Assembly: GCA_964187785.1 (NCBI GenBank) | Contig: OZ076409.1 | Location: 74,774,001-74,838,000, forward strand | Source: Amphiscolops sp. MND2022 | Lineage: Eukaryota | Reading direction: 5' to 3' | Length of the DNA stretch: 64,000 bases | Shown: piece by piece, positions 1 to 26,361 of the stretch | Layout: every line of letters begins with the position of its first letter | Position numbering within the stretch: position 1 is the first letter of the stretch | Notes under the pieces: model-generated | Databases searched by the model: none | The model's input: only the letters and a program-made list of their open reading frames with translations | What the model was told of the DNA's origin: nothing | Translations under genes and position numbers: made by a program

Positions 1-684
1 TTTTTTCCGTTATTTGGGCCCCCAAAGTGGGGGAAAAGACCCCCCAACCAGTAAAGCAAGTGAATGCATGTGGAAAGCCCTTGTTTAGAGGAGAAAAATG
101 CCGTTTAGAACGTCTTTTTATCTTGGCTCAACGTTGACTTATGACGTTTTGAAGGTGATGTTTGGAGGTGTAAATCACGTGAATAGTAAACGTTATGAGT
201 ATTTATCTGATCTGAAAGCCATTGAGATGCAATATGGTTTGCTCAAAACGTAATTCATGGCAGTTTGGCAATCAATCAACACCCTTTGTTGTCGTTTGAC
301 ATACTTTTTTGTTGTTATAATAAAAATTTTGTGTATTTGTTCATTTTTTTCTCATCAAATAACTTGAAACAGTTGAGTACATTCCATCCCCCCTTCCGGG
401 GGAGATGAGAATGTACTCGCAAAAAGCAGCGAATTACGGCCCTTACCTTCCCGAGCTACGCAGTATAAGGATTACATATTGGTTCCGACATTTTCATAGA
501 GTTAAATCTTGGTAATCTGTCTGGATATGCAGAAAAATCAGCACGTGCCTTTTAATACCAAGTTGCTCACAACGACAATTATTTTATATCAACGCCCCCA
601 TATTTATCAACGCCCCCCGTCCGTGGGCATGCCGAGGCATGCCCTTCGACGACGTATACCAAGATATACATCGAGCGCGTTAGC
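1..684 (+). mobile_element. Unit U0 (partial, 3' half of an E-type unit)
   Basis: Nearly identical to 53649-54332. Long hairpin at 375-418 and terminal palindrome at 625-644. Confidence 0.7.
607..657 (+). promoter_or_regulatory. Conserved sub-terminal motif CAACGCCCMCCGTCYGT-GGGCATGCCGAGGCATGCCC-TTCGACGACGTAT (example; at 33 of 38 unit ends)
   Basis: 9-bp inverted repeat around GA. In the copies measured it starts 55-73 bp before CTAG. It matches RRRCWWGYYY x2 at 19/20 positions. Function is inferred only. Confidence 0.6.
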
Positions 685-691
685 CTAGGTG
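685..691 (+). other. Invariant junction core CTAGGTG (first of 38); candidate recombination or nicking site
   Basis: Present at every unit boundary; left and right flanks assort largely independently. Confidence 0.85.
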
Positions 692-1970
692 CCGGGATTT
701 CTATTCGATAAAGTATGTGGCGCGTGTGGGTAGGGCCCCTGGCGCGCTCTTGGGTATGGTGTTCACCAGCTAGGAAACAGGGGTCGATTTTTCGGGATCT
801 CCTAAACTAGCCACACGATTTGGCTGAAATTTGGCACACGTACTCCCCTCGGCATGGTGAAGATGATTCCCTACTAGCGTTTTGCTCGCAAAATTTTTTT
901 TGTTGTCCAAAATAACGGTTTTTGGGGGAAAATTTTGAACTTTTTTTAAATTTCATCTTATATCTCGCCACGGGTTTACGCTAGCGCTTCAAAACCCTGC
1001 TAAAGAAAGCTTGCAAACTGTCTCAGGAATGCGGTGTGAAGTTTTCAGCTCAATCGGACTTAAACTCAGGGAGATATAGCGTTTTTCCGGAGCGGGGGGG
1101 TTTCATTTTTCTAACGGTCCAGCTTATCTTAGCCATTTTTTCGAAAATGTACTCGCCTAAAGACCTCCCCTGGCCGGTTTTATTCCCAGCAAAACCATTT
1201 GGCCCTAAATACGGAGTTTCAGCGTTCCAGCATTCCCGGGCGAAAAGTTGTGAGACTTAGAAAATTTCAAAAATTTTCAAATTTTTTTTTTCCGTTTTCC
1301 GCCCTCCCCCCCGAGGGGAAAAGACCCCCCAACCAGTAATTTGAGTGAATTCATGTGGAAAGGCCATGTTTAGAGGAGAAAAATCCCGTTTAAATTGTCT
1401 TTTTATCTTTATTCAACGTTGACTTATGACGTTTTGAAGGTGATGTTTGGAGGTGTGAAGCACGTGAAAAGTAAACGTTATGAGTTTTTATCTGATCTGA
1501 AAGCCATTGAGATGCAACCTGTTTTGCTCAAAACGTAATTCATATCAGTTTGGTAGTCAATCAACACCCTTTGTTGTCATTTGACATCTTTTTTTGTTGA
1601 TATAAGAAAAAATTTCGTGTATTTATTCATTTTTTTCTCATCAAATAACTTGAAACAGTTGAGTACATTCCATCCCCCCTTCACGGGGGAGATGAGAATG
1701 TACTCGCAAAAAGCCCCGAACTACGACCCTTACCTTCCTGAGCTACGCAGTATAAAGATTGCATATTGGTTCCGACATTTTGATAGAGTTATATCTTGGT
1801 AATCTGTCTGGGTATGCAGAAAAACCAGCACGTGCTTTTTTATACCAAGTTGCTCACAACGACATTTATTTTATATCAACGCCCCCATATTTATCAACGC
1901 CCCCCGTCCGTGGGCATGCCGAGGCATGCCCTTCGACGACGTATACCAAGATATGTTCGAGCGCGTTAGC
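685..1970 (+). mobile_element. Unit U1, type E, 1286 bp
   Basis: Head CTAGGTGCCGGGATTTCTATTCG; tail palindrome at 1912; similar to U23/U24/U29. Confidence 0.7.
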
Positions 1971-3359
1971 CTAGGTGGTTGGGGCGGTCCCCAGAACGCA
2001 CAAGGAGGCGCGGGGAGGGTCCTGCGCCGACGTAGAATAATTTCATATAATACTAGTATCCTACATGGGTGTTTTAGAGGCGATTTTGGAATCTAACCGT
2101 AGGATTTGGATAATTTTTTGCATGCGGCCATAACTCGAAATTCTAAGAACTTTTTCCTACTGTCATTTTCCCCGCAAATTTTTTTTTGTTGACTCACGGC
2201 CAAAAAACCGGAAATAACGTCCTTTTTAGACGTTATATCCGAAGTGTCGTCATAACTTTTTTCCAGGGCATGCTAGCGTTCTCGTTCACTTTTACACTTA
2301 GTTGCAGCATCTCAAAATACAACTGGTGGAAAATTTTGATTGCATTCGGATCACCCCCCACCGAGATAGAAGGGTCCCCCCCTCCAGTTTTACCCCCCAA
2401 ATTTGCAAAATAGCCAATTTTGAGCATGAAGCCGAGGATTTAGCGTACCCGCACCCTCCTGATGTTTTGTTGTACGTATTGGGGTCAATCTGACGACATG
2501 TGTGGTTTTCACCCCCAACCCCCCCTTGGACCGGAAATGACTCTTTTTTGTGTTTTTTGGCAGAATTTAGCCTTTTTCATTATTAGGCAGTCGTTTTAGG
2601 GACTCCTAGCAGGATATCGAAATTGAAATACAACCTGATCACAACCCAGTGACAACATGTTGGCCATTTGGAGGTATCATCATGACCGGAAGTGGGGTCA
2701 ACCCCCCTTTTTGTGACCGCTTTTTGACCTTGTGCACCAAAATGCCAACATCTTGAGGCCTAATGAGGCATTCAAATCTGTACAAAGATAAAATGTTAGA
2801 CAACCGAAGTCCCGGAAGATCTTTAGCATATACCGGAAGTTACCCCCCATGACCGGAAGTTACCCAATGTGACCGGAAATGGTCCAAAAATTAATGTAAA
2901 GTTGAATTTTTCACTATTTCAAGACCACTTAATTGAAACTTTTCAATCTCAAAACTAGCGTACTGGCTTGTTTTGCTGAATTTATGGAAATTGATGAGCT
3001 CTATCGCCCCCGATAGCCTTCGAAGTTGACCTTGCGTCAACTTTGTAGGCTATCGATAAAGAAAAATGAACAACAAAGTACATTGTTGCTCTCGTTTTTT
3101 TCCCGTTGTTTTTCCTCAAACATTCTTGAGACATATACATGGCCGTTAGTTGAAATCAATGTTTAGCCCATGTTATAGCTGGAGCAGCGAAGCGTTACAC
3201 AGACTAGTGTGGTTTTGAAATCACACTATTTAAATTAACAACTGACCGTCTTAGTCAACTCCACACATTCATACCAACGCCCACCGTCTGTGGGCATGCC
3301 GAGGCATGCCCTTCGACGACGTATGACGAATCCACTCCAACGACACCCGCAGTCCTCAG
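1971..3359 (+). mobile_element. Unit U2, type A, 1389 bp
   Basis: Head CTAGGTGGTTGGGGCGGTCCCCAG; CGATAGCC hairpin at 3011-3055; tail ...GTCCTCAG. Confidence 0.7.
2832..2880 (+). repeat. Triad of ACCGGAAG/AT motifs at exactly 20-bp spacing (example; A, B and C units)
   Basis: ACCGGAA at 2832, 2852, 2872; also 6428/6448/6468 and 4262(ATCGGAA)/4282/4302. Confidence 0.75.
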
Positions 3360-5552
3360 CTAGGTGGAGGTTATTTTATAATAATTAATGTGTTTTTTTC
3401 CGGAGTTTGTGGCTTTGGAAAAAACAAAAGGCGAGAAATCGTGCACTCCGGGCTGAACCGTATACACTCAAATTTCGCCCATTTTTTATACGATCTCGAA
3501 ACCCAGCCGTACGATTTTGCGCAAAATTTGCATGCGGCTACAAAATCAGATTCTAAGAACTATTTCCTGGTGACATTTTTTTGAAATTTTTGTGTACGTT
3601 TCCCCCCCGCCCCCTAAAGGGGTCACTTTTCCCCACTTTTGCACTTATGAGTCAAATTCTCAAACCTGGTGGATCTGAGCGTATTCCTGACGGGGACAAC
3701 TTTTAACAAGCGCTCCTCAGTCGACCTTTTTGACTTTTTACTTTGGTGGTACGTTCACCCCCCGAGGAGGAAATTGCGTTTTTGTGACTTCCGGTCGAGG
3801 CTTTTTTCACCCAAAAATTAGAATTAAGCCAGTTTTGAGCAGGAAGGAGTGGATTTAAAGTGCCTGTACCCTGCTAAAAATTTGTTGGGCTTGTAGCGAT
3901 ATATCTCATACCAAGTCTGGTTTTCACCCCCAAACCCCCCTTGAGACCAAAATTCACCCAAAGTTTTTTACCTCTGTTTGTAGTTTTTTTACCGAATATC
4001 GTCATTTCCATGGGTACGGAGTTGAATTAGGGGCTCCTAATAGGGTACCGATGTTCAAGTACACTTGCAGTGCAACTGAGTGACCCTTTTTGGGCCTCTC
4101 CTGTGTTCGGCAAGGACCGGAAGTGGTGTAACCCCCCCTTTTTTGACGTTTGTTGACCTTGAGACTCGCGCTTAGATGACGTTTATGTCGCGCAAATCCT
4201 ACAAACAAGTATTAGGATGTCATGCTAGCCAACTAGAGAGCAGTAAGGGAAACAATAATATATCGGAAGTAACCCCCCGTGACCGGAAGTTGTCATTTTT
4301 GACCGGAAATGGTCCAAAACCTAGCGTTAAAGCAGTTTTTCATTGCTTTTAAAGTCAACTTCTTACATTTTTCAATCTGCGCGAGCTTTTCTTCAGGTTC
4401 GTTTTTGTTGCCGGTGCACAGCAACGAATATACAACTGTAAAATTTTCGCTATAAAATCGTCGGAGAGAGAAATAACGGAATATTTGGAGTTTTTTTCGA
4501 AAATATTAGTCTATATCTGTCATTTTTACCCAATGTTATTCAACAGTAGAACCACAGATTTTATTCTCTGCCCAAAAATATGCCTAACAAATTCACCTGT
4601 CCCTTTGGTTGCAGTTTGAGCATTCTAGCTTTTTCTGGTCACAAGTAAGGGGACTTGAAAAAGTTTCAAAAACTTTTCCGAAAAATTTTTCTAAACGTCA
4701 TGTCTCCCAAAGTTAAGAAACTTCCGCACAACTAGGATTACAAGTGAATGCACGTGGTAAGACCTCTAATTGGAGAGAAAAATTCAGTTTAGAACGTCTC
4801 TTTATCGTAACGTGACGTTAAGAGAAGTTGCTTTGAATGCGAGCTTGATGAGACGTCGAGAAGTAACAGTGTGTAAATGGAACCTATGTCTCGACAAATA
4901 CTCATCGGAATACATGAGATGAACCCCAATTACCCTCAATTTCAGTTGCCTAGTACAACAACGTCTTCCAAGGACCCTTTAATCTTTTTGATAAGCGTTG
5001 AAGTCATCAATAGATTGAGTTCGCAAGAAACAATTGAGTACATTCTCATCTCTCCCCATCGGGTGAGATGAGAATGTTTTTGCTGAAAGCCAGGTACTAC
5101 GGCCCAATTTTGTTTCATTGCGACGCATTCTGTGCTTTAGCACATAGATACTTTTATTCCGTCTCACTTTTTGTATACACTCTGATTTGTTGTTATGAAT
5201 TTCTCGTCATTACTTTACATAAACTAATTACCATAAAACTTTAACGTCAAAGCCACATTCATTTAGACACCCACCATTCCGTAGGTATGCCGAGGTATGC
5301 CATTCGAAGATGTAGGTCAAACGCAAATGCGATAAAAATAGTGCTGAAAATCGGAAACAGTGACAAACAATTTTGACTTTTTGATATTTGTTAGGTTTTC
5401 ATATGGAACTTACACATCACTGACAATTCAAAACATTCCAGCTGACGCTCACATACAAACATCAACGCCCACCGTCTGTGGGCATGCCGAGGCATGCCCT
5501 TCGACGACGTATAGCAAATTCCTTTAATATCTACACCCAATTGCGGTAGCTG
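3360..5552 (+). mobile_element. Unit U3, type B, 2193 bp
   Basis: Head CTAGGTGGAGGTTATTTTATA; near-identical to U18. Confidence 0.7.
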
Positions 5553-6951
5553 CTAGGTGGTCGGGTATTTTTTTTTACTCGTAGATGGCGTTTGCGAGGC
5601 TTTGGGGAGGGCCCCGTGCCGAGCCTGTACCGAAATTTACCACATACCAGAAGTGGTATAAATATTCGAGATCTCAAAAACTAACCGTTAGAATTCTCTG
5701 AAATTTTGCATGTGGCTCTTAATCAATGAGTAATGAAAAAGTGTAGGAGTGACGGTTGCTGAAAAAGTTGCCTTTGTTGCACTTTTTGCGCAATTTTTGT
5801 CGCATTGTTGCGTTTTTTATGTCATTTTCCACTTTGGAGGCAAAAAAGTCACAGATGCTTTGTTCCTAGCGTATCAAGTGTGGTGCACGAAAAGTTGCAG
5901 CACCTTCAATTACGTATGCTGAAAAACTTTGGTTGCCCTCGGCTTACCCCCCACAGAGATAGAGAGGTGCTTCCGGTTATTTTTGACCCCTAAATTTGGG
6001 AAAATGCTAATTTTCGTAATAAAGCTGTAGATTTAGCGTGTGCACACCCTGCAGAAGATTTGTTGGGCATTTTGAGATAGATCCGATGACATGCGTTCAG
6101 TTCACCCCCATCACCCCCTGGACCGGAAATGAACTTTTTTGTGTCCTTTCAGACCGGAAGTCTCCATTTTCAACGGTAAGGAGTCCTTGTACGAACAACT
6201 CGCAGGGCATCAAAATTGAAGTACAATGTGGGGTGAGCCTAGTTACCACGTGTTGTCCAGTCATGGGTACCGCCATGACCGGAAACGGGGTCAAAAACCC
6301 CCCTATTGGTCCTTTTTTTAATCAGTTTGACTAGTGTTTTGTCCACATTCAAGTCGCATAAGCAAATTAAACCAGTGTGAGCATAGACTGCATGTTCACT
6401 GCGTAGACGTAACTGACGCTGCCATATACCGGAAGTAACCCCCTCTGACCGGAAGTGGTCAATTTTGACCGGAAATGGTCCAAAAAGTAGCGTAAATGCA
6501 GTTTTTCTTTGCTTTTTAAGGTCAAGTTATTACTTTCTTTTCAATTTGAATGCTATTTTCCACGCAAAAAGCTAACATCGTTGCATGTTTTGCTGAAAAC
6601 CTGAAAAGTGCCCACCTTTATCACCCCCGATAGCCTTTCAAGTTTACCTTGGGTCAATCTTGAAGGCTATCTGTACTTAAAACGAAAAATAGAGTTAATT
6701 AGATTTCTCCTTTACGTTGACATTTTTCCTTCACATTAATTTGTTATGAAAAGACTTTTTTCCAACTTAAAGATCTAAAAATTGGTCAAAAGGTGCCACC
6801 CTGACAAAGATTATTTGCAATTGAAGTAAACTGAGAAAGAAGGTAGTATTAGTCGACATCACACATTTTTACCAACGCCCACCGTCTGTGGGCATGCCGA
6901 GGCATGCCCTTCGACGACGTATGCCCAATATACGCGTTAGCGCGGTAGCAG
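5553..6951 (+). mobile_element. Unit U4, type C, 1399 bp
   Basis: Head CTAGGTGGTCGGGTATTTT; GATAGCC hairpin; related to U15. Confidence 0.7.
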
Positions 6952-9328
6952 CTAGGTGGTCGGGGTGTTTCCCAGCCGTTTTGGCCGCGCGGGGAGGGAC
7001 CCGTTCAGCGGCCCAGGTAATTAAGATTTTGTCATTAAAAAAATGACCCATCCGGAAAGCGATTTCGAAACCCACCCGTAGGATCCCTCTGAATTTTTGC
7101 ATGCACCTCCGTATAACAGATGTAAGATAAAGTCAGCAAGGGCGTTTTCAGTTCTAAACGGGGAATGTTGACCAAAAAGCGCAATTTATGTCCAAAAAAA
7201 TGCAATTTTTCGACTTTTTTATTTTTGACGGCCAACAGCTCTTTTCCAGATGCCCGCCCAAGTCATAAACCGGAGTAAGCTTTTGTTGGGCACTTCGTGA
7301 AGAATCTTTAGGGTGATTTTCGTTTCATTCCTATTTCCTGACGTTGACTTATGGTTGGTTGAAAAAACGCAACATTTGTTACAAAAAGTGCTTTTGGTAC
7401 TCAAGGGCCCATAACTCGTGACATAATCAATTGAGCAAGTTCGTGTATAATTACGATTTTGTTGCCTATCTATAGGAGAACAAACAAGCAGGAATAAAAT
7501 TTTCTGTGGGAAGACGTCAAAAAAAGATATCAAAGGTTTTATACTCAATAAAATGGTGTTTTTCGATTATCGTGGAAAAAATGTAAAAGGGTGGCATTTT
7601 TCGGCTGTTCAAGGTAGCGGGTATTTCATTGCAGTTAATAACTCACCTCTAGTAGTCATTTACTTGGATGATTTTCAATGTTGATAAATTGCATGATAAA
7701 CTTCATTTTTTGCGTCACCAATATTGACACCCACGATTTCAGTCAATTTTTTCGCGTTCACGTTTTTGAGTGGATATAACTTTTTTCCAGTGCGTTTTAC
7801 GGTCATCATCCAGGAGCACAAAATTGTTGGCCGTCTTAAGCAGAAAATATATGGTAAGTTTAGAGTCATTTGAAACGTTTTTGAAATGTCCAGAGATGCA
7901 CAAATTTACAGTTTTTTTGCCCACAAAACACTTTTTTACGAAACAAAAACACTTTTTGCCAAAAAAGTCAAACTTTGTCCACACAACTTAGATTGCAAGT
8001 GAATGCATGCGGAGAGTACTTGAAATGATGGGAAAAATGAGCTATAGAACGCTCATTTACGACAACCTGACGTGGACTTAGGATAATTTGAAAAAGTACG
8101 AAAAAAAAGAACAACGGTTCCAAAACAATCAGTTTGTAGTAAATGGCCAATAACTCCATACACAACCCTCCGCGCAAGCTGGTGTCCAAGTACGTTTTTG
8201 TTACCCGTGAATAGTGCAACAAATAAGTAAAAGTAAAACTTTATGTAGAGAATCGTCGGAGAAAGAAATAACGGGATTTTTTATCACATTTAAGAGACAA
8301 AATTGAAAAATTAGTCTATTCCTGGCATTTTACCTAAACTTTTTCGACAGTACACATACAGGAGGTAAAATTCGTCCAATATCATGCCTAACAAAACTAT
8401 TTGATCCATTGGTCGCAATTTGAGCGTTCCACCTTTCCCCAGTCATAAATTATGGGACTTCGAAAATTTTCAAAAGTTCCATTTTTCAACAAAATTTCAA
8501 ATTCAGGCCTCCCAAAGGTAAGAAAGTTCCACACAACTAGGATTGCAAGTGGTTGCATGTGGAAAGTGCTCGAACCGACAAGAAAAATGGGCTTTAGAAC
8601 GTCTCTCTATCGTAACCTGACGTTGACTTATGATGTTTTGAATGTGATACTGCTACGTGCTCGAGAAGTGTAAGTGGAACATATGTCTCGTTGAATACTC
8701 ATCGGAATACATTCAATGAACCCAATCACCCTAAATTGCAGTTTCCTAGTGCAACAACGTCTGTCAAGGACCTTTTTTGATAAGAGTCGAAATTATTATT
8801 AAATTCAGTTAGCAAGAAACACTTGAGTACATTCTCATCTCTCCCCATCGGGGGAGATGAGAATGTACTTGCTAAAACGGCTTCTTTGTTTTCATGCGAT
8901 GGATTCTGTGCCTTGCCACACATATAACTTTGTTTTGTGTGACCTTGCGTATATACTTTGACTTGTCATAATAAATTTCTTCTCGTAAATTTACGTAAAT
9001 CAACAATGCATCTACAATGCACCTTCAACGTCAAAGCCAAATAAATATAGCTGGCCACCGTCCGTAGGCAGAGCAAGGCATGCTTTTTGACGACGTATGC
9101 CGAAACACAAACGCGAACAAAACTGCTGAAAATCAGAAACAGTGACCAACAATTTTGACTGTTTGACATATGGTAGGTTTTTATATGGAACTTACACATC
9201 ACTGATATTTCACAACATTTCAGCTGACGCCCACCTACCACTATCAACGCGCACCGTCAGTGGGCATGCCGAGGCATGCCCTTCGACGACGTATGGCTAA
9301 TACCTTCAGCGACGCCCCCGCGCTCCCC
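6952..9328 (+). mobile_element. Unit U5, type D, 2377 bp
   Basis: Head CTAGGTGGTCGGGGTGTTTCCCAGCC; near-identical to U11. Confidence 0.7.
8825..8870 (+). repeat. Long bulged inverted repeat GAGTACATTC..CATCTC/GAGATG..GAATGTACT (example)
   Basis: About 20-bp stem, present in all types except A, C and H. Confidence 0.85.
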
Positions 9329-10716
9329 CTAGGTGGTTGGGGCGGTCCCCAGAACGCACAAGGAGGCGCGGGGAGGGTCCTGCGCCGACGTAGAATAATT
9401 TCATATAATACTAGTATCCTACATGGGTGTTTTAGAGGCGATTTTGGAATCTAACCGTAGGATTTGGATAATTTTTTGCATGCGGCCATAACTCGAAATT
9501 CTAAGAACTTTTTCTTACTGTCATTTTCCCCGCAAATTGTTTTTCGTTGACTTATGGCCGAAAAACCGGAAATAACGTCCTTTTTAGACGTTATATCCGA
9601 AGTGTCGTCATAACTTTTTTCCAGGGCATGCTAGCGTTCTCGTTCACTTTTACACTTAGTTGCAGCATCTCAAAATACAACTGGTGGAAAATTTTGGTTG
9701 CATTCGGATCACCCCCCACCGAGATAGTAGGGTTCCCCCCTCCAGTTTTACCCCCCAAATTTGCAAAATAGCCAATTTTGAGCATGAAGCCGAGGATTTA
9801 GCGTACCCGCACCCTTCTGATGTTTTGTTGTACGTATTGGGGTCAATCTGACCACATGTGTGGTTTTCACCCCCAACCCCCCCTGGGACCGGAAATGACA
9901 TTTTTTTGTGTTTTTTGGCAGAATTTAGCCTTTTTCATTATTAGGCAGTCGTTTTAGGGACTCTTAGCAGGATATCGAAATTGAAATACAACCTGATCAC
10001 AACCCAGTGACAACATGTTGGCCACTTGGAGGTATCATCATGACCGGAAGTGGGGTCAACCCCCCTTTTTGTGACCGCTTTTTGACCTTGTGCACCAAAA
10101 TGCCAACATCTTGAGGCCTAATGAGGCATTCAAATCTGTACAAAGATAAAATGTTAGACAACCGAAGTCCCGGAAGATCTTTAGCATATACCGGAAGTTA
10201 CCCCCCATGACCGGAAGTTACCCAATGTGACCGGAAATGGTCCAAAAATTAATGTAAAGTTGAATTTTTCACTACTTCAAGACCACTTAATTGAAACTTT
10301 TCAATCTCAAAACTAGTGTACTGGCTTGTTTTGCTGAATTTATGGAAATTGATGAGCTCTATCGCCCCCGATAGCCTTCGAAGTTGACCTTCCGTCAACT
10401 TTGGAGGCTATCGATAAAGAAAAATGAACAACAAAGTACATTGTTGCTCTCGTTTTTTCCCGTTGTTTTTCCTCAAACATTCTTGAGACATATACATGGC
10501 CGTTAGTTGAAATCAATATTTAGGCCATGTTATAGCTGGAGCAGCGAAGCGTTACACAGACTAGTGTGGTTTTGAAATCACACTATTTAAATTAACAACT
10601 GACCGTCTTAGTCAACTCCACACATTCATACCAACGCCCAACGTCTGTGGGCATGCCGAGGCATGCCCTTCGACGACGTATGACGAATCCATTCCAACGA
10701 CACCCGCAGTCCTCAG
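9329..10716 (+). mobile_element. Unit U6, type A, 1388 bp
   Basis: Near-identical to U2 and U16. Confidence 0.7.
10369..10413 (+). repeat. Alternative long inverted repeat CGATAGCCTTCGAAGTTGAC/GTCAACTTTGGAGGCTATCG of A and C units (example)
   Basis: 20-bp stem with two G-T pairs and a 5-nt loop. Confidence 0.85.
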
Positions 10717-12004
10717 CTAGGTGGCCGGAAATTTTTTTTTTCATCAAAATCTTTGCCATTGGGGGAGGGGCCCCGGATGGCCAGTAGTACGGGATAGCTT
10801 CCTACCAAATCCAGATGGAAAAAACGTGATTTCGGAAACTAGCCGTCAGAATTTGCTCAAATTTTGCATACGGCTTCCTATGACAATCCTAAGAACTAAT
10901 CCCCACTGGCATTTTGCCCAAAAAACGCAAAAAGTTGGTCAAAATCTTAGTTTTTTGGTCAAAAAATGGCAATTTTTCGAAAAAAATTTTTTTCAGAGAC
11001 AATTACTCGTAACTGGTTCACCCAGCGCAATAACGCCTAGCTGATTTATTGTTGGGCACTTCATGAGGAGTGCGTATACAGTTTTTCGTCCAGATCGGAA
11101 AAAAATTGACTAAGTATTAGCCGGAATTCGGACGCATTTTTTCGCAAATTTTTGAAAACCTAGTCTATCTCTGCCGTTTTTTGCCCAGATTTTTTTCCAG
11201 GTCCTCTCCTAAAGGCCTCCCCTGGCCGGTTTACTTCCCAGAAAAACCATTTGGCCCTAAATACGGAGTTTCAGCGTTCTAGCATTCCCGGGCGAAAAGA
11301 TGTGGGACTTAGAAAAAATTCAAAATTTTTCAAAAATTTTTTTTTTCGTTTTCCGGCCCCCCAATGAAGGGGAACGACCCCCCAACGAGGATTGTTGGTG
11401 AATTCACGTGGAAAGGCCTTGTTTTGTGGAGCAAATTGCCGTTTAGAGCGACTTTTTATCTTAACTTGACGTTGACCTCTGTCGTTTTGAATTTGATATT
11501 AGTATGTGTTGAGCATGTGAAAAGTTGATGATTTCAGTTGTTCTCTCGTGTTCAAGCCATTGAGATACAAGCGGTAGTGATCAAAATGTGATTTATCGCA
11601 ATTTGGTGGTGCTTTTGGTGTATTTTGATTCTTTTAAATAAAAAGTTGTTCTTTATATATTTGGTGTATTGATTCAAATGAACAAGAAACAGTTGAGTAC
11701 ATTTCATCTCCCCCCTTGTGGGGGAGATGAGGATGTACCCGCTAAATGACACGCACAATGGCCCAATTTTATTTTTATGCGACGTTCTCTAGGCTTTTGC
11801 GCAAGCCCACTAAAATTTAGACTGGTTTCCTTTTCTTTTACTCCAAAATTTTCCGTACTAACCACCTTACGCACCACCAGCTCAACGTAACATCTGTAAC
11901 GTCAACGCCACACACTCTCACTAACGCCCACCGTCCGTGGGCATGCCGAGGCATGCCCTTCGACGACGTATGCCAAATAGCGCCATAGGGCGCAAACTTG
12001 TCCG
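10717..12004 (+). mobile_element. Unit U7, type F, 1288 bp (single copy here)
   Basis: Head CTAGGTGGCCGGAAATTT; has the head hairpin, GAGTAC hairpin and terminal palindrome. Confidence 0.7.
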
Positions 12005-14382
12005 CTAGGTGGTCGGGGTGTGTTTCCCAGCCAATTTTGCCGCGCGGGGAGGGACCCGTTCAGCGGCCCAGGTCATTATTTTTTTACATTAAAAAAAACG
12101 ATACCCCGGAAAGCGATTTCGAAACCCACCCGTAGGATCCCTCTGAATTTTTGCATACACCTCCGTATAACAGATGTAAGAAAAAGTCAGCAAGGGCGTT
12201 TTCAGTTCTAAACGGGGAATGTTGACCAAAAAGCGCAATTTATGTCCAAAAAAATGCAATTTTTCGACTTTTTTATTTTTGACGGCCCATAGCGTTTTCC
12301 CAGATGCCCGCCCAAGTCATAAACCGGAATAAACTTTTGTTGGGCACTTCGTGAAGAATCTTTAGGGTGATTTTCGTTTCAATCCTATTTCCTGACGTTG
12401 ACTTATGGTTGGGTGAAAAAACGCAACATTTGTCACAAAAAGTGCTTTTGGTACTCAAGGCCCCATAACTCGTGACATAATCAATTGAGCAAGTTCGTGT
12501 ATACCTACGATTTTGTTGCCTATCTCTAGGAGAACAAACAAGGGGAAACAAAATTTTCTGTGGGAAATCGTCAAAAAAAGATATCACAGGTTTTATACTC
12601 AATAAAACAGTGTTTTTCGGTTATCGTGGAAAAAAAGTAAAATAGTGGCATTTTTCGGCTGTTTAAGGTAGCGGGTATTTTATTGCAGTTATTAACTCAC
12701 CTCTAGTAGTCATTTACTTGGATGATTTTCACTTTTGATAAATTGCATGATAAACTTCATTTTTCGCGTCACCAATATTGACACCCACGATTACAGTCAA
12801 ATTTTTCGCGTTCACGTTTTTGAGTGGATATAACTTTTTTCCAGTGCGTTTTACGGTCTTCATCCAGGAGCACAAAATTGTTGGCCGTCTTAAGCAGAAA
12901 ATATATGGTAAGTTTAGAGTCATTTGAAACGTTTTTGAAATGTCCAGAGATGCACAATTTTACAGTTTTTTTGCCCACAAAACACTATTTTACGAAACCC
13001 AACACTTCTTGCCAAAAAAGTCAAACTTCGTCCACACAACATAGATTGCAAGTGGATGCATGCGGAGAGTACTTGAAATGATAAGAAAAATGAGCTATAG
13101 AACGCTCATTTACGACAACCTGACGTGGACTTAGGATAATTTGAAAAATTACGAAAATAAAGAACAACGGTTCCAAAACAATCAGTTTGTAGTAAATGGC
13201 CAATAACTCCATACACAACCCACCGCGCAAGCTAGTGTCCAAGTACGTTTTTGTTACCCGTGAACAGTGCAACAAATAAGTAAAGGTAAAACTTTATGAA
13301 GAATATCGTCAGTGGAAGAAATAACGTGATTTTATGTCACATTTGAGTGACAAATTTGAAAAATTAGTCTATTCCGGGCATTTTACCTAAACTTTTTCGA
13401 CAGTACACATACAGGGGGTAAAATTGGCCAAATATCATGCCTAACAAAACTATTTGATCCATTGGCCGCAATTTGAGCGTTCCACCTTTCCCCAGTCATA
13501 AATTATGGGACTTCGAAAATTTTCAAAATTTCCATTTTTCAACAAAATTTCAAATTCAGGCCCCCCAAAGGTAAGAAAGTTCCACACAACTAGGATTGCA
13601 AGTGGTTGCATGTGGAAAGTACTCGAACTGACGAGAAAAATGGGCTTTAGAACGTCTCTCTATCGTAACCTGACGTTGACTTATGATGTTTTGAATGTGA
13701 GATTGCTACTGGGTCGATAAGTGTAAGTGGAACATATGTCTCGTCGAAAACTCATCGGAATACATCCAATGAACCCCAATCACCCTCAATTGCAGTTTCC
13801 TAGTGCAACAACGTCTGTCAAGGACCTTTTTTGATAAGAGTCGAAATTATTATTAAATTCAGTTAGCAAGAAACACCTGAGTACATTCTCATCTCTCCCC
13901 ATCGGGGGAGATGAGAATGTACTTGCAAATTGGCCTCATTTGTTTTCATGCGAGGCATTCTGTGCTTTGGCACACATAGATAACTTTGTTTTGTCTGTCT
14001 TTTTGCATATACTTTAAATTGTCATTAGAAATTTGCCGACTTTACTTTACGTAAAATTAACTTTCTACCATGCACCTTTAACGTCAAAGCCACATAAATT
14101 TAGACTCCTATCATCGAAAAACATACCGCGGCATCTTTTTCGATGACGTATGCCGAAACACAAATGTGAAAAAAAGTGATGAGATTCAGAAACAGTGACA
14201 AACAATTTTTACTATTTGACATAAGGTAGGTTTTTATATGGACCTTACACATCACTGATATTTAATAACAATCCAGCTGACGAACACATACCAACATCAC
14301 CGCCCACCGTCCGTAGGCATGCCGAGGCATGCCTTTCGACGACGTATGCCTAATCCATTCCTCCGACGCCCCCACTCCGCCC
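12005..14382 (+). mobile_element. Unit U8, type D, 2378 bp
   Basis: Near-identical to U13; variant palindrome AGGCATGCCGAGGCATGCCT. Confidence 0.7.
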
Positions 14383-15769
14383 CTAGGTGGTCGGGGCGGT
14401 CCCCAGAACGCACAAGGAGGCGCGGGGAGGGTCCTGCGCCGACGTAGAATAATTTCATATAATACTAGTATCCTACATGGGTGTTTTAGAAGCGATTTTG
14501 GAAACTAACCGTAGGATTTGGATAATTTTTTGCATGCGGCCTTAACTCGAAATTCTAAGAACTTTTTCCTACTGTCATTTCCCCCTCAAATTGTTTTGTG
14601 TTGACTTATGGCCGAAAAACCGGAAATAACGTCCTTTTTAGACGTTATATCCGAAGTGTCGTCATAACTTTTTTCCAGGGCATGCTAGCGTTCTTGTTCA
14701 ATTTTACACTTAGTTGCAGCATCTCGAAATACAACTGGTGGAAAATTTCGGTTGCATTCGGATCACCCCCCACCGAGATACAAGGGTTCCCCCCTCCAGT
14801 TTTACCCCCCAAAATTGCAAAAAAGCCAATTTTGAGCATGAAGCCGAGGATTTAGCGTACCCGCACCCTTCTGATGTTTTGTTGTAAGTATTGGGGTCAA
14901 TCTGACCACATGTGTGGTTTTCACCCCCAACCCCCCCTGGGACCGGAAATGACATTTTTTGTGTTTTTCGGCGGAAATTAGCTTTTTTTCTTTAGTAGGC
15001 AGTTGTTTTAGGGACTCCTAGCAGGATATCGAAATTGAAATACAACCTGATCACAACCCAGAGACAACATGTTGGCCATTTGGAGGTACAATCATGACCG
15101 GAAGTGGGGTCAACCCCACTTTTTGTGACCGCTTTTTGACCTTGTGCACCAAAAGGCCAACAACTTGAGGCCTAATGACGCATTCAAATCTGTACAAAGA
15201 TAGAATGTTAGACAACCGAAGTCCCGGAAGCTCTTGAGCATATACCGGAAGTCACCCCCCATGACCGGAAGTTACCCAATGTGACCGGAAAAGGTCCAAA
15301 ATTTAATGTAAAGTTAATTTTTTCACTATTTCAAGACCACTTCGTTGAACGTTTTCAATCCCAAAACTAGCGTTTTGGCTTATTTTGTGAATTTATGGAA
15401 ATTGATGAGCTCTATCACCCCCGATAGCCTTCGAAGTTGACCTTGCGTCAACTTTGGAGGCTATCGAATCTGAAAATGAACAACAAAGCACATTGTTGCT
15501 CTCGTTTTTTTCCGTTGTTTTTTCTCAAACATTCTTGAGACATATACATGGCCGTTAGTTGAAATCGATATTTTAGGCCATGTTATAGCGGGAGTAGCGA
15601 CGCGTTACACAAGCTAGTGTGGTTTTGAACTTACATTATTCAAGATAACAAATGATCGTCTTAGTCAACGCCACACATTCATACCAACGCCCACCGTCTG
15701 TGGGCATGCCGAGGCATGCCCTTCGACGACGTATGAGGAATCTACTCCAACGACGCCCGCAGTCCTCAG
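14383..15769 (+). mobile_element. Unit U9, type A variant, 1387 bp
   Basis: Head CTAGGTGGTCGGGGCGGTCCCCAG; same tail as other A units. Confidence 0.7.
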
Positions 15770-17958
15770 CTAGGTGGAGGTTATTTTATAATAATTAAAG
15801 TGTTTTTTTCCGGAGTTTGTGGCTTTGGAAAAAACAAAAGGCGAGAAATTGGGCACTCCGGGCTGAACCGTATACACTCAAAATTCGCCCAATATTTATA
15901 CGATCTCGAAACCCAGCCGTACGATTTGGCTGAAAATTTGCATGCGGCTAAAAAATCAGATTCTAAGAACTATTTCCTGCTGACATTTTTTTGAAATTTT
16001 TGTGTACGTTTCCCCCCCGCCCCCTAAAGGGGTCAATTTTCCCCAATTTTGCACTTATGAGTCAAATTCTCAAAACTGGTGGATCTGAGCGTATTCCCAG
16101 CGGAGACAACTTTTAACGAGCGCTCTTCAGTAGACCTTTTTGACTTTTTACTTTGGTGGTAGGTTCACCCCCCAAGGAGGAAATGGCTTTTTTGTGACTT
16201 CCGGTCGAGACTTTTTTCACCCAAAAAATAGAAATAAGCCAGTTTTGAGCAGGAAGGAGTGGATTTGAAGTGTCTGTACCCTTCTAAAAATTTGTTGGGC
16301 TTGTAGCGATATATCTCATACCAAGTCTGGTTTTCACCCCCAAACCCCCCTTGGGACCAAAATTCACCCAAACTTTTTTACCTCTGTTTGTAGTTTTTTT
16401 GCAAATTGTCGTCATTTCCATGGGTAAAGAGTTGAATTAGGGGCTCCTAATAGGGTACCAATATTCAAGTACACTTGCAGTGCAACTGAGTGACCCTTGT
16501 TGGGCCTCTCGTGTGCTCGGCAAGGACCGGAAGTGGTGTAAACCCCCCTTTTTTGACGTTTGTTGACCTTGAGTCTCGCGCTTAGATGACGTTTATGTCG
16601 CGCAAGTCCTACAAACCAGTATTCGGATGACACGCTAGCCAACTAGAGAGCAATACGGGAAACCATAACATACCGGAAGTAACCCTCCGTGACCGGAAGT
16701 TGTCATTTTTGGCCGGAAATGGTCCAAAACCTAGCGTAAAAGCAGTTTTTCTTTGCTTTTAAAGTCAACTTATTACAATTTTCAATCTGCGCGAGCTTGT
16801 CCTAAGGTTCGTTCTGTTGCCAGTGCACACTTTAACAAATATACATCTGTAAAATTTTCGCTATAATATCGTCGGAGAGAGAAATAACGGGTTTATGGGA
16901 CTTTTTTCAAAAACGATAGTCTGTATCTGTCTTTTTTACCCAACGTTTTTCAACAGTAGAACCACAGGGGTTAGTCTCTGCCCAAATATATGCCTAACAA
17001 AACCAGTTCACCCATTGGTTGCAATTTGAGCGTTCTAGCTTTGCCAGGTCACAAGTTATGAGACTTGAAAAGTTTCCAAAATTTTTTCCGAAAATTTGTT
17101 TCTAAACTTCATGTCTCCCAAAGTTAAGAATCTTCCGCACAACTAGGATTGCAAGTGAATGCATGTGGTAGAACCTTTAAATGGAGAGAAAATATCCGTA
17201 TAGAACGTCTCTTTATCGTATTTTGACGTCGAGAGATGTTGCTTTGAATGCCAGCTTGATAAGACGTCGAGTAGTAACAGTGTGTAAATGGAACATATGT
17301 CTCAACAAATACTCATCGGAATACATGCGATGAAACCCAATTACCCTCAATTTCAGTTGCCTAGTACAACAACGTCTTCCAAGGAACTTTTAATCTTTTT
17401 GAGAAGTGTTGAAGTCATCATTAAATTCAGTTAGCAAGAAACAATTGAGTACATTCTCATCTCTCCCCATCGGGTGAGATGAGAATGTTCTTGCTAAAAG
17501 CCAGGTACTACTGCCCAATTTTGTTTTATTGCGACGCATTCGGTGCTTTAGCACATAGATACTTTTATTCCGTCTCACGTTTTGTATACACTCTGATTTG
17601 TTGTTATAAATTTCTCGTCATTACTTTACATAAACTAACTACAATCGTGAACTTCAACGTCATAGCCAAATTCATTTAGACGCCCACCTTTCCGTGGGTA
17701 TGCCGAGGTATGCCTTTCGAAGACGTATGTCAAAACGCAAATGCGATAAAAAAGGTGCTGATATTCGGAAACAGTGACAAACAAATTGACTATTTGATAT
17801 TTGGTAGGTTTTTATATGGAACTTACACATCACTGACATTTCAAAACATTCCAGCTGACGGCCACATACGAACATCAACGCCCACCGTCCGTGGGCATGC
17901 CGAGGCATGCCCTTCGACGACGTATGGCAAATACCTTCATCGACGCCTCCACATTCCC
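15770..17958 (+). mobile_element. Unit U10, type B variant, 2189 bp
   Basis: B head; the last ~30 bp are D-like. Confidence 0.7.
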
Positions 17959-20334
17959 CTAGGTGGTCGGGGTGTTTCCCAGCCGGTTTGGCCGCGCGGG
18001 GAGGGACCCGTTCAGCGGCCCAGGTAATTAAGATTTTGTCATTAAAAAAATGACCCATCCGGAAAGCGATTTCGAAACCCACCCGTAGGATCCCTCTGAA
18101 TTTTTGCATGCACCTCCGTATAACAGATGTAAGATAAAGTCAGCAAGGGCGTTTTCAGTTCTAAACGGGGAATGTTGACCAAAAAGCGCAATTTATGTCC
18201 AAAAAAATGCAATTTTTCGACTTTTTTATTTTTGACGGCCAACAGCTCTTTTCCAGATGCCCGCCCAAGTCATAAACCGGAGTAAGCTTTTGTTGGGCAC
18301 TTCGTGAAGAATCTTTAGGGTGATTTTCGTTTCAATCCTATTTCCTGACGTTGACTTATGGTTGGTTGAAAAAACGCAACATTTGTTACAAAAAGTGCTT
18401 TTGGTACTCAAGGGCCCATAACTCGTGACATAATCAATTGAGCAAGTTCGTGTATACTTACAATTTTGTTGCCTATCTATAGGAGAACAAACAAGCAGAA
18501 ACAAAATTGTCTGTGGGAAGACGTCAAAAAAAGATATCAAAGGTTTTATACTCAATAAAATGGTGTTTTTCGATTATCGTGGAAAAAATGTAAAAGGGTG
18601 GCATTTTTCGGCTGTTCAAGGTAGCGGGTAGTTTATTGCAGTTATTAACTCACCTCTAGTAGTCATTTACTTGGATGATTTTCAATGTTGATAAATTGCA
18701 TGATAAACTTCATTTTTTGCGTCACCAATATTGACACCCACGATTTCAGTCAATTTTTTCGCGTTCACGTTTTTGAGTGGATATAACTTTTTTCCAGTGC
18801 GTTTTACGGTCATCATCCAGGAGCACAAAATTGTTGGCCGTCTTAAGCAGAAAATATATGGTAAGTTTAGAGTCATTTGAAACGTTTTTGAAATGTCCAG
18901 AGATGCACAAATTTACAGTTTTTTTGCCCACAAAACACTATTTTACGAAACCCAACACTTTTTGCCAAAAAAGTCAAACTTTGTCCACACAACTTAGATT
19001 GCAAGTGAATGCATGCGGAGAGTAGTTGAAATGATGGGAAAAATGAGCTATAGAACGCTCATTTACGACAACCTGACGTGGACTTAGGATAATTTGAAAA
19101 AGTACGAAAAAAAAGAACAACGGTTCCAAAACAATCAGTTTGTAGTAAATGGCCAATAACTCCATACACAACCCTCCGCGCAAGCTAGTGTCCAAGTACG
19201 TTTTTGTTACCCGTGAACAGTGCAACAAATAAGTAAAAGTAAAACTTTATGTAGAGAATCGTCGGAGAAAGAAATAACGGGATTTTTTATCACATTTAAG
19301 AGACAAAATTGAAAAATTAGTCTATTCCTGGCATTTTACCTAAACTTTTTCGACAGTACACATACAGGAGGTAAAATTCGCCCAATATCATGCCTAACAA
19401 AACTATTTGATCCATTGGCCGCAATTTGAGCGTTCCACCTTTCCCCAGTCATAAATTATGGGACTTCGAAAATTTTCAAAAGTTCCATTTTTCAACAAAA
19501 TTTCAAATTCAGGCCTCCCAAAGGTAAGAAAGTTCCACACAACTAGGATTGCAAGTGGTTGCATGTGGAAAGTGCTCGAACCGACAAGAAAAATGGGCTT
19601 TAGAACGTCTCTCTATCGTAACCTGACGTTGACTTATGATGTTTTGAATGTGATACTGCTACGTGCTCGAGAAGTGTAAGTGGAACATATGTCTCGTTGA
19701 ATACTCATCGGAATACATTCAATGAACCCAATCACCCTAAATTGCAGTTTCCTAGTGCAACAACGTCTGTCAAGGACCTTTTTTGATAAGAGTCGAAATT
19801 ATTATTAAATTCAGTTAGCAAGAAACACTTGAGTACATTCTCATCTCTCCCCATCGGGGGAGATGAGAATGTACTTGCTAAAACGGCTTCTTTGTTTTCA
19901 TGCGATGGATTCTGTGCCTTGCCACACATATAACTTTGTTTTGTGTGACCTTGCGTATATACTTTGACTTGTCATTATAAATTTCTTCTCGTAAATTTAC
20001 GTAAATCAACAATGCATCTACAATGCACCTTCAACGTCAAAGCCAAATAAATATAGCTGGCCACCGTCCGTAGGCAGAGCAAGGCATGCTTTTTGACGAC
20101 GTATGCCGAAACACAAACGCAAACAAAACTGCTGAAAATCAGAAACAGTGACCAACAATTTTGACTGTTTGACATATGGTAGGTTTTTATATGGAACTTA
20201 CACATCACTGATATTTCACAACATTTCAGCTGACGCCCACCTACCACTATCAACGCGCACCGTCAGTGGGCATGCCGAGGCATGCCCTTCGACGACGTAT
20301 GGCTAACACCTTCAGCGACGCCCCCGCGCTCCCC
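17959..20334 (+). mobile_element. Unit U11, type D, 2376 bp
   Basis: Near-identical to U5. Confidence 0.7.
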
Positions 20335-22709
20335 CTAGGTGGTCGGGGTTGTTCCCAGCCGTTTTGGCCGCGCGGGGAGGGACCCGTTCAGCGGCCCTGG
20401 TAATTAAGATTTTGTCATTGAAAAAAATGACCACCCGGAAAGCGATTTCGAAACCCACCCGTAGGATCCCTCTGAATTTTTGCATACACCTCCGTATAAC
20501 AGTTGTAAGAAAAAGTCAGCAAGGACGTTTTCAGTTCTAAACGGGGAATGTTGACCAAAAAGCGCAATTTATGTCCAAAAAAATGCAATTTTTCGACTTT
20601 TTTATTTTTGACGGCCCACAGCTCTTTTCCAGATGCCCGCCCAAGTCATAAACCGGAGAGAACTTTTGTTGGGCACTTCGTGAAGAATCTTTAGGGTGAT
20701 TTTTGTTTCAATCCTATTTCCTCACGTTGACTTCTATGTGACGCAATTAGGTGACAAATTCGGTAAAAAAACGCAATTTTGGTACTCAAGGGCCCATAAC
20801 TCGTTACAGAGTCAATTTAGCAAGTTCATTTACTTTTACGTTTTTGTTGCCGATCTATGGGCAAACAATTAAGCAAGAACAAATTTTTCTGTGAAACATC
20901 GTCAAAAAAAGATATCACAGGTTTCAAAAACGCAAAAAATGTACTTTTTTGGATTTTGTGGAAAAAATAGAAAAAGGTGGCATCTACCGGCTGTTTCAGG
21001 TAGCGGATATTTTATTGCAGTTAATAACTCACCTTTAGTAGTCATTTACTTGGATGGTATTTGACTTTGATAAAAGGCATGATAACTTTCATTTTTCGCC
21101 TCACCAATATTGACACCCACGACTACAGTCGATTCGTCGAATTCACGTATTTAACTGGACATAACTTTTTTCCAGAGCGTTTTACGGTCCTCACACAGGA
21201 GTGCAAAATTGTTGCCCGTCTTAAACGGAAGGCATATAGTGAGTTTAGAGTAATTTGAAACGTTTTTGACATGTCCAGAGATGCACAAATTTACAGTTTT
21301 TTTGCCCACAAAACACTATTTTACGAAACCGAACACTTTTTGCCAAAAAAGTCAAACTTCGTCCACACAACTTAGATTGCAAGTGGATTCATGCGAAGAG
21401 TACTTGAAATGACGAGAAAAATGAGCTAAAGAACGCTCATTTACGACAACTTGACGTGGACTTAAGATAATTTGAAAATCACAAAAAAAGAACAACGATT
21501 CCAAAACAATCAGTTTGTAGTAAATGGCCAATAACTCCATACACAACCCTCCGCGCAAGATAGTGAACAAGTACGTTTTTATTACCTGTAAGCAGTGCAA
21601 CAGATAAGCGGAAGTAAAACTTTATGTAGAAAATCGTCGGGGAAAGAAATAACGGGATTTTATATCACATTTAGGTGACAAAATTCAAAAATCAGTCTAT
21701 CCATGGCATTTTCCCTAATATTTTTCGACAATACACCCACACGGGGTGAAATCTGCCTAAAATTGTGCCTACTAATACTATTTGATCCTTTGGCCACAAA
21801 TTGAGCGTTCTAGTTTTCCCAGTAAAAATTTATGGGACTTCGAAAATTTTCAAAATTTCCATTTTTCTACAAAATTTTAACTTCAGGCCTCCCAAAGTTA
21901 AGAAAGTTCCACACAACTAGGATTGCAAGTGGATGCATGTGGAAAGTACTCGAATAGACGAGAAAAGAGGGCTATAGAACGTCTCTCTATCGTAAGCTGA
22001 CGTTGACTTATGACGTTTTGAATGTGAGTTTGCTAAGGTGTCGAGAAGTCAAAATGTGTAAGTGGAACATATGTCTCGTCGAAAACTCATCGGAATACAT
22101 TCAATGAACCCCAATTACCCTCACTGTTAGTTGCGTACTGCAACAACGTCCTTCGAGGTCCTTTTTTGATAAGTGTCGAAATCATTATTAAATTCAGTTA
22201 GCAAGAAACACTTGAGTACATTCTCATCTCTCCCCATAGGGGGAGATGAGAATGTACTTGCTAAAATGGCCTCCTTGTTTTCATGCGATGGATTCTGTGC
22301 TTTGCCGCATATACAACTTTGTTTTATGACTTTTGGTATTTACTTTTTCTTGTCATTATAAATTTCCTTTTCCTACATTTACGTAAAATTAACTTTCTAC
22401 CATGAGCCTTTAAAGTCAAAGCCAAATAAATTTAGAAGCACACCATCCTTAGGCATGGCAAGGCATGTTTTTTGTTGACGTATACCAAAACTCAAATGCG
22501 ACCAAAAGTCCTGAAATTTACAATCAGTGACAAACAATTTTGACTATATGACATATGGTAGGTGTTTATATGGAACCTTCTCTGATATTTCAAAAAATTC
22601 CAGTTGACGCCCACATACCATCATCAACGCCCACCGTCCGTGGGCATGCCGAGGCATGCCCTTCGACGACGTATACCAATTACCCTCTTACCGACGCCCC
22701 CGCCCACCT
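20335..22709 (+). mobile_element. Unit U12, type D variant, 2375 bp
   Basis: D head; diverged interior related to U19/U20/U25. Confidence 0.7.
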
Positions 22710-25087: not shown

Positions 25088-26361
25088 CTAGGTGGCCGGG
25101 AACTTTTTTTCCTGCATTTTTCTGTCCAATTGGGGGAGGGGCCCCAAGTGGCTGTTATCCGGTTTTACTACCTACCCTAAACACGCTCAAAAAATGACGA
25201 TCTCGAAAACCACCCCTTAGATTTTCCTGAAACTTTGCATACAGGCCTAGAATCAAATCCTAAGAACTATTTCCTACTGGCGTTTTTCCGAATTTTTTCA
25301 AAAAGTTGGTCAAAAATGCAACAAAAGTTGCCAATGGACATAAAAAACGCAACTTTTCGACTTTGAGGGCTCATAACTTTTTCCAGAGTGCCCGGAGCAA
25401 TTCACACAGTGAGAACAATATTGCTCAGCATTGTTGGAGGAGTGCGTGGACAAATTTGGGGTTGAATTGGATGAAAATTGACTGAGAAATAAACGAAAAT
25501 TTTGGTGCATTTGTTGCAAATACCAGTTTATCTCTGCCATTTTCGCCCAAAATTTTTCCCAGAGCCTTTACAGGAGGCAACCCCTGCCCAAATTTCTGCC
25601 GAGCAAACCCTTTTGGCCCTAAATACGAGGTTTCAGCGTTCTAGCATTTCCTGGCAAAAAGTTGTGAGACTCAGAAAAATTTCAAAAAAACGCAAAAATT
25701 GTAAAAATTAACTTCTGGCGTCCCAAAGTCAAAAAACTTTCACACAACTAGTATTGCAAGTGAATGCATGTGGAAAGTACTTGCATAGACGAGAAAAATG
25801 AGCTATAGAACGACTCTGTAGCTTAATCTGACGTTGACTTATGACATTTTGAGTGTGAGCTTCCTATAGGATTTTAATGTCAAAAATGAGATTTTGTAAG
25901 TCATGTCTAATCAAAAACTCATCGGAATACGTTCAATCATCCCCATAGCTGTTCAATTACAGTGGCTCAGTAGAGCAACGCCATTTAATGTCCTTGGACC
26001 CATTTTGAAAATTTTCCTTACCGTCTTATTCGTCCGATATCACGAAACAGTTGAGTACATTCCATCTCCCCCCTTGTGGGGGAGATGAGAATGTACTCGC
26101 CAAAGACCTGATACAGTGGCCCATATTGAGTTTTATTTGACTTTTCTCACGATATTGCACACGGATAGCTGTGTTTGGTAAAAGTTTTCCTTTGCACAAT
26201 GTCTCCAGAAGCTAAACCACTTCTTTAGCTTACACTTCTACTCAAACATCACCAACGTCAACGCCACATACTCGCATCAACGCCCACCGTCCGTGGGCAT
26301 GCCGAGGCATGCCCTTCGACGACGTATGCCAAATAGCGCCACAGGGCGCCCCCAATTTCCG
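25088..26361 (+). mobile_element. Unit U14, type G, 1274 bp (single copy here)
   Basis: Head CTAGGTGGCCGGGAACTTTT; shared motifs present. Confidence 0.7.

Follow-up and report, generated by a model that had tools for sequence, protein, structure and literature searches.

The locus analysed here raises the question of why a 20-bp palindrome resembling a near-perfect p53-family response element recurs 33 times within 64,000 nucleotides of Amphiscolops sp. MND2022 (contig OZ076409.1, positions 74,774,001 to 74,838,000; this whole stretch is called the window below). The initial annotation regarded it as either a host p53-family site or a hairpin recognised by the mobilising enzyme. The p53 match proved strong, but the dichotomy is too narrow, as neither p53 selection nor a generic hairpin alone accounts for the motif. 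The best reading is that of a composite signal acting in cis during mobilisation, the central 20 bp of which would be occupied by a p53-family tetramer; to this we give a probability of about 0.45; the odds placed on this and other explanations are judgements on an uncertain prior, not computed values. The underlying observation is confirmed: the motif exists, is not a product of chance, and is under tighter constraint than p53 binding would require.

Organisation of the array

The window consists of related units separated by an exact heptamer. Its main features, all on the plus strand, are the following.

1..64000, +, whole window, an array of related non-coding units set head to tail, their order shuffled
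685..691, +, first of the 38 CTAGGTG joints that separate units; every copy is on the plus strand, 0 on the minus strand
685..1977, +, type A unit of 1293 bp, the first that is complete
685..920, +, 5' region with homology across 14 of 14 types, containing a GC-rich motif (728-739) and a conserved motif (about 795-836)

The 38 joints, located from 685 to 63341, delimit 37 complete units of 1078-2406 bp, which BLAST coverage groups into about 14 types. Identity is 84-99.5% within types and 53-78% between 11 representatives; the first ~220 bp are homologous in all 14 types, while the 3' parts differ. Sequence 5' of a joint tracks the upstream unit and sequence 3' of it tracks the downstream unit, with 28 different pairs of types meeting at the 38 joints. 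Eleven pairs of units are at least 95% identical (in one pair the two units adjoin each other), and none of the 11 shares a near-identical neighbour, whether to the left or to the right. That duplicated blocks gave rise to the unit order was rejected on this count, and the units are shown to have been placed singly. Same-type neighbours are commoner than chance (9 vs 3.8, P=0.008); the order is shuffled, yet not fully random. On visual inspection the first 40 kb consist mainly of types B-G and the remainder mainly of types A, A2 and H-M, a regional distribution that may record the order of addition. The 2.4-kb types (6952-9335, 48094-50478) contain internal duplications of the mid-unit conserved region, with 66-78% identity.

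The longest ORF in the window is 145 aa, a single one of 132 stop-to-stop frames from 13 unit types gave a Pfam hit (E=0.007, below the family cut-off), and the window contains no Rfam family at gathering threshold and no tRNA; on these results a coding or RNA-gene nature of the units was rejected. Terminal inverted repeats were not found in comparisons of the first and last 100 bp, the best match being 5-9 nt in 14 of 14 representatives, where the chance level, by arithmetic, is about 6-7 nt. Poly(A) tails or 5' truncations occur at none of the 38 joints. The units are probably non-autonomous mobile DNA, joined by breakage and rejoining within the heptamer.

Exact-pattern scans of viral contigs, metagenome contigs and 185,579 prokaryote genomes gave no match, which, together with the lack of genes, points to a eukaryotic host; internal motifs similar to those of the units occur in non-autonomous elements of animals. 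Two sequencing runs were listed as containing the sequence (shares 0.07 and 0.06), none of them RNA, and these yielded 24 and 9 short low-depth contig pieces over 560-12100, too thin for typing motif variants. One 151-nt contig of run X2 (depth 4.4) joins 1431-1497 directly to 560-643, matching the latter in 83 of 84 letters; this single contig resembles a deletion variant that drops the long internal hairpin described below (hairpin A) and keeps the conserved block around the palindrome.

The palindrome, its block and the hairpins

The features that carry the argument at the 3' ends of the units are listed below.

625..644, +, p53-like palindrome, first of 33 subterminal copies, predicted delta-logKd 0.16
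618..654, +, invariant 37-bp block (-7..+30) enclosing the palindrome; variation among the 33 copies is confined to positions -3, 1 and 20
14315..14334, +, variant copy with G1A+C20T, pairing and p53 consensus both kept
590..615, +, two CAACGCCC-like repeats 5' of the block, conserved in part
375..418, +, hairpin A, long and internal, which precedes the joint by about 270 bp (in long types about 460 bp)

The window contains 31 exact copies of the 20-mer and two with G1A+C20T, all on the plus strand, against 0.00 matches in 100 shuffles. The total of 33 and the placement of a copy at 625..644 agree exactly with the initial annotation, as does the match to the consensus: RRRCWWGYYY twice with no spacer fits at 19 of 20 positions, C/G cores intact, in 33 of 33 copies. 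Sites with at most two mismatches to this consensus number 37 in the window, with 2.0 expected. As read off the sequence at 625..644, the palindrome has 9-bp arms and a GA centre, and each arm carries a self-palindromic 8-mer with a 10-bp period, the 20-mer being a direct repeat and an inverted repeat at once. The possibility of 33 independent p53 matches was rejected: the units are homologous, and the copies descend from one ancestral site. The G1A+C20T variant recurs at 25020-25039, and, as the two units carrying it are 99.5% identical, a single mutational event accounts for both. The palindrome had been described as terminal; it is in fact subterminal, ending 35-53 bp before the CTAGGTG joint, and the continuous spread of this distance, without helical phasing, suits a loosely positioned factor.

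The conserved element is the 37-bp block rather than the 20-mer alone, as invariance reaches 7 bp to the left and 10 bp to the right of the p53 footprint. Between types, identity is 98% in the block, 44% in the upstream flank and 39% in the downstream flank. The longest cross-type word passes through the 20-mer, and a 32-nt exact word through the motif is shared by 11 of 14 types, which bears out the claim that this is the most conserved long motif across types; the best 25-nt word outside the block reaches 4 of 14. On a tree of the 33 unit ends carrying the block, parsimony gives 4.3 changes per column upstream of it and 4.1 close to the joint, compared with 0.1 within the 20-mer and 0.0 within the ten bases that follow. 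The outer CGTC/GACG pair is fixed, the unpaired position -3 varies, and the remaining unpaired bases of the flanks are likewise fixed. Such constraint within non-coding units would be explained most simply by cis-selection on being copied. Some tails 3' of the block are closer to the tail of another type than to that of their own; given these tail swaps, the block may be homogenised by crossovers within it or close to it, and part of the invariance may have this origin.

The 8-9 bp stem of the 20-mer folds in 7 of 7 stretches tested; compared with shuffles, the region of the first copy has a z of -1.4 on the plus strand (unremarkable) and -2.7 on the minus strand. The invariant unpaired flanks, together with the internal four-fold symmetry, make a generic hairpin alone insufficient. 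In the last 30 nt before the joint, a hairpin beats shuffles (P<0.05) in only 4 of 38 ends, and on this count a universal small hairpin right before CTAG was rejected. In types F and G (11975-12004, 26332-26361) a GC hairpin of 5 bp precedes CTAG by 11-12 nt, a placement that corresponds to canonical Helitron geometry; most other types lack it.

Hairpin A occurs also in two of the three types that have no p53-like block. Its covariation, with a two-sided change in 1 of 17 pairs, is too weak for hairpin A to act as a clean positive control, and its one-sided changes are mostly G-U compatible on the plus strand (10 cells vs 2, non-independent). Types B and D, which lack hairpin A, have a long hairpin of unrelated sequence (3011-3055) about 280-305 bp from the joint, so that the structure is kept and the sequence replaced.

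The G-U bias bears on a reading in which the block, at the 3' end of each unit, is a CpG-rich promoter, composed of a site for p53 or another factor and GC-box-like repeats, that transcribes the next unit from the joint, movement being RNA-based. Head-to-tail telomeric retroelements offer an analogue. The fixed orientation, the retained CpGs and the loose spacing to the joint are consistent with this reading, as is the bias itself; but 38 joints without poly(A) tails or 5' truncations, and the lack of any Rfam family at gathering threshold, argue against it, and we give it only a slim chance.

Two groups of sequences depart from the common pattern: units that lack the block, and units that carry a second copy of it.

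55646..56938, +, unit with exact joints and no p53-like block
37481-38558, 48094-50478, 59471-60740, 60734-62031, +, further block-less units
5283..5302, +, internal decayed copy, 197 bp 5' of the subterminal copy
34824..34861, +, internal copy forming a perfect hairpin with 15-bp arms, first p53 core lost (fold z -5.9)
40476..40495, +, internal copy with a paired change 4:17, stem kept and both CWWG cores broken

The block is absent from 5 of 38 unit ends, belonging to three types, and the joints there are nonetheless exact; the block is therefore not essential. A substitute p53 site was not found in these five units with up to three mismatches, spacers of 0-3 and cores required, their best p53 matrix score lying above 1.1. 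Of the units 37481-38558 and 48094-50478, one shares only the first ~220 bp and the other has a unique last ~450 bp; both are possible cases of captured sequence with new 3' ends.

Types C and E have a second copy of the block about 195 bp upstream of the subterminal one, 13 such copies in all, and all 13 are decayed. They show 6-13 differences per 36 positions (ungapped count) and have lost 26 of 65 CpGs, keeping 39, vs none of 165 lost and 165 kept in subterminal copies. Their predicted p53 cost is 0.75-1.65, and at least one core base is lost in 12 of 13. The conversion to a 15-bp-arm hairpin is repeated at 37206-37243, and the perfection of the arms in internal copies is best read as probable arm-to-arm template switching. 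C and E share their 3' part, so the decay probably represents one ancestral event, which redundancy could explain. The pattern that the initial annotation had set against a p53 site, with pairing kept and CWWG lost, was found in some of these internal, apparently retired copies and in none of the 33 subterminal ones. The drift of internal copies to better pairing with loss of the cores counts against the composite reading.

Arm-to-arm copying, visible in the internal copies, and the mosaic tails are also what a functionless block would show if it were kept uniform through gene conversion between units and template switching between its arms. We consider this very improbable, as conservation falls sharply on both sides of the block, the same sequence decays when internal (6-13 differences per 36 positions), and arm copying cannot repair the unpaired flanks.

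Predicted p53 binding and the second constraint

Affinity was predicted with the matrix of measured costs for human p53, the specificity of which may differ from that of the host protein, in Table 2 of Veprintsev and Fersht (PMC2275157). On this human matrix, the predicted delta-logKd relative to the best site is 0.16 for the 31 exact copies, a shortfall of about 1.5-fold at most from the human optimum, and 0.26 for the two variants. Nothing else in the window falls below 0.75, and simulation of 30 windows yielded no value better than 0.39. For a palindrome of random sequence, its arms 9 bp and its centre 2 nt long, the chance of reaching 0.16 is 0.7-2.4e-5, and that of a plain 19/20 consensus match about 3e-4, both figures being per ancestral motif, so that the 33 copies add nothing to them. 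With a score of 0.16 and a chance of about 1e-5, the match is stronger than the near-perfect element originally claimed; these odds are softened, since the number of elements scanned was very large and such symmetry arises cheaply when a palindromic 8-mer is duplicated at 10 bp. Judging from the matrix, a host p53-family protein of the usual specificity, if present, should bind the motif; that host p53 truly reads the site we would put at about even odds.

The mid-unit motif at 54-73 and its homologues (25754, 44915, 48769, 49678) have CAAG and CATG cores 10 bp apart, a p53-like spacing, with poor flanks and a predicted cost of 1.1-1.3. The word TGCATG is strand-biased in the window, with 60 occurrences on the plus strand and 8 on the minus strand.

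The block did not evolve as a p53 site would, with fixed cores and free R/Y flanks: the bases beside the cores, like 17 bp beyond the site, are no less fixed than the cores themselves, which excludes p53 as the sole constraint and does not exclude p53 binding. Twelve substitutions would cost p53 at most 0.05 log, four of them improving the site, and one coupled event was observed, G1A+C20T, at positions that are among the cheapest for p53 to change (total 0.26). G10 is retained in 33 of 33 copies, though C or T would improve predicted binding. At p53-neutral positions 2 changes were observed, where a background of 4.2, 2.5 or 1.25 changes per column would lead one to expect 19.5, 11.6 or 5.8 (P values of 7e-7, 7e-4 and 0.07); the top rate is probably inflated by misalignment, and the test is firm only at a moderate or higher true rate.

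These counts weigh against an ordinary transposon-borne p53 element, one that selection for p53 binding alone would maintain and that inter-unit recombination would render uniform. Functional p53 sites are known in a non-autonomous DNA transposon, zebrafish EnSpm-N6_DR (PMC3485254), as well as in Alu (PMC3032802) and ERV LTRs (cited by PMC3485254/PMC3032802), and to this extent the statement that transposons carry p53 sites is well founded. The precedents share with the present motif a two-decamer p53 site in a multicopy non-autonomous element; together with the near-optimal score on the human matrix and the tail swaps, which show crossovers in or near the block, they favour this explanation. 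However, the EnSpm-N6_DR, Alu and LTR sites vary about as much as the element that carries them, and they act on genes nearby. In EnSpm-N6_DR the p53 sites are 93% identical and the element 90% (PMC3485254); here the values are 98% and about 40%, the site being near-invariant across types that are 53-78% identical, within a longer fixed block and near the joint of a gene-free array. With 2 changes against the 19.5, 11.6 or 5.8 expected, ten invariant bases 3' of the site and no gene in the window to regulate, p53 selection alone is improbable. Fuzzy tandem repeats (PMC3386156) likewise have p53 sites clustered in tandem repeats; those are fast-diverging, intronic and gene-regulating, while the units here are 1-2.4 kb long, with precise bounds, and placed individually.

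The main rival, somewhat less probable than the composite reading, holds that the block is the enzyme's own signal and the p53 match coincidental; p53 might still bind, without consequence. The signal could be a Helitron-like 3' single-stranded DNA hairpin terminator before CTAG or a subterminal double-stranded recombinase site. Invariance at p53-neutral and flanking positions speaks for it, the decayed copy is the one far from the joint, and the arm-to-arm perfection of internal copies shows the capacity of this DNA to fold back. The palindrome before CTAG, the universal 5' end and the replaceable 3' ends also parallel Helraiser (PMC4778049). This explanation demands, however, a coincidence of roughly 1e-5 per palindrome, or about 3e-4 for the 19/20 match, odds that a 10-bp tandem duplication of a palindromic 8-mer would shorten. 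It must also accommodate a distance to CTAG of 35-53 bp instead of about 11, a stem that is fixed here and, in the same account, replaceable in Helraiser, and the absence of the block from three types. The decay of internal copies lends it weak support, being probably a single ancestral event.

In the composite reading, an enzyme encoded elsewhere would break and join DNA inside CTAGGTG, and circles of single units would be inserted at existing joints, building up the array. The block would be selected for helping its unit get copied. A host p53/p63-family tetramer is the candidate partner of the central 20 bp, where it would probably open chromatin or fire transcription beside the joint, in the germline or in stressed cells. 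Since only one coupled event was seen among the twelve p53-neutral or improving options, a second constraint must be added to fix the p53-neutral positions, which may come from an enzyme or cofactor that contacts the CGTC/GACG flanks, or else from single-stranded DNA folding back on itself. The block would act as a booster and not as a strict requirement, because three types persist without it.

The candidate enzyme and the meaning of the array

Comparison with known families places the units in none of them, and their ends fit none fully. A rolling-circle HUH nuclease is the tentative first candidate for the enzyme, and a Crypton-type tyrosine recombinase a possible second; the two are not separable. 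The nuclease would fit CTAG and the palindrome upstream of it, as well as a 5' end common to all units and 3' ends that can be replaced, and the recombinase the lack of inverted repeats together with a shared core (PMC3212892, PMC13465315, PMC9977147).

Helitrons, exemplified by Helraiser (PMC4778049, PMC4067079), resemble the units in a 16-20 nt palindrome before CTAG and in exact head-to-tail joints. The Helraiser palindrome is 19 bp long and lies 11 nt before CTAG, its stem being swappable and the palindrome unneeded for circles; the element cannot do without its left end, can dispense with the hairpin as terminator, and acquires new 3' ends (PMC4778049). A dispensable hairpin, new 3' ends and a conserved 5' end have their counterparts here. 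In contrast to Helitrons, the units have no 5' TC and would start with GTG, the spacing is 35-53 bp vs about 11, the stem sequence is fixed, and the arrays mix types and do not repeat one monomer. The 3' CTRR of Helitrons corresponds to CTAG in 38 of 38 joints only if the cut falls after CTAG, and GTG, not TC, then follows at all 38; the length of the palindrome agrees with that expected about 11 bp from the 3' end, but its distance (35-53 bp) does not. A canonical Helitron was rejected on the 5' terminus and the palindrome distance. A Helentron or HINE was rejected as well, as there are no 12-15 bp subterminal inverted repeats (longest 5-9 nt in 14 of 14) and the joints are not T-rich. Helitron-derived tandem arrays are already known (PMC12001565).

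Cryptons, like the units, have no terminal inverted repeats and carry a short direct repeat at each end, and in their insertion a terminal motif recombines with a matching target (PMC3212892; PMC9977147; PMC13465315). Recombination of this type would rebuild a single core between neighbouring units. The differences are that the core shared at every joint has 7 bp vs the 4-6 bp repeats of Cryptons (the true crossover could be part of it), that no symmetric arms surround it, and that the window contains no recombinase; no mixed head-to-tail Crypton array was found in the literature searched. Microsatellite targeting has been noted for CryptonV (PMC8869645).

Replitrons (PMC10288648) combine short terminal direct repeats with a right-end palindrome, both present here; they are reported from plants, algae and protists, and the right ends of Replitron-1 are fuzzy, unlike those of the units. 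Dada elements (PMC3706591) share a 6-7 bp duplication, the lack of terminal inverted repeats and tandem insertions of two families, but were rejected, as they target small RNA genes (PMC3706591), and here there is no tRNA and no Rfam hit.

The units also differ from these families in forming a mixed array, for which the closest likeness is one of analogy, not membership. Bacterial integron arrays consist of same-orientation shuffled cassettes with a palindrome near the cassette end and a short crossover core. The same three traits are seen here; unlike integron cassettes, the units are non-coding homologues, the crossover lies outside the palindrome, and there is no integrase in the window. 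By this analogy the locus could be an integron-like array in an animal genome, in which excision, copying and re-insertion at the 7-bp core are switched on by host p53/p63 through an optimal site built into each cassette, a proposal that we regard as rather unlikely. If true, a mobile element would have turned the genome guardian into the trigger of its own mobilisation, either in germline cells or following damage to DNA. The SOS control of bacterial integrons provides a parallel for such p53-triggered mobilisation of cassettes. No precedent for a p53 site as a mobilisation signal, and no report of a p53-optimal invariant subterminal signal or of a mixed head-to-tail eukaryotic array of this kind, was found in the literature searched, which included few subscription papers; the family may already have an entry in Repbase or Dfam.

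The p53 sites of transposons are usually read as material borrowed by the host or as a means of repressing the element. If non-coding mobile units keep such a site invariant, the element itself would depend on p53-family binding, and this dependence would make mobilisation in the germline by p53 activation directly testable. The array may prove more important than the motif: should the resemblance to a p53 site be incidental, joints exact over 7 bp and the shuffling of single units would still point to a site-specific eukaryotic DNA mobiliser.
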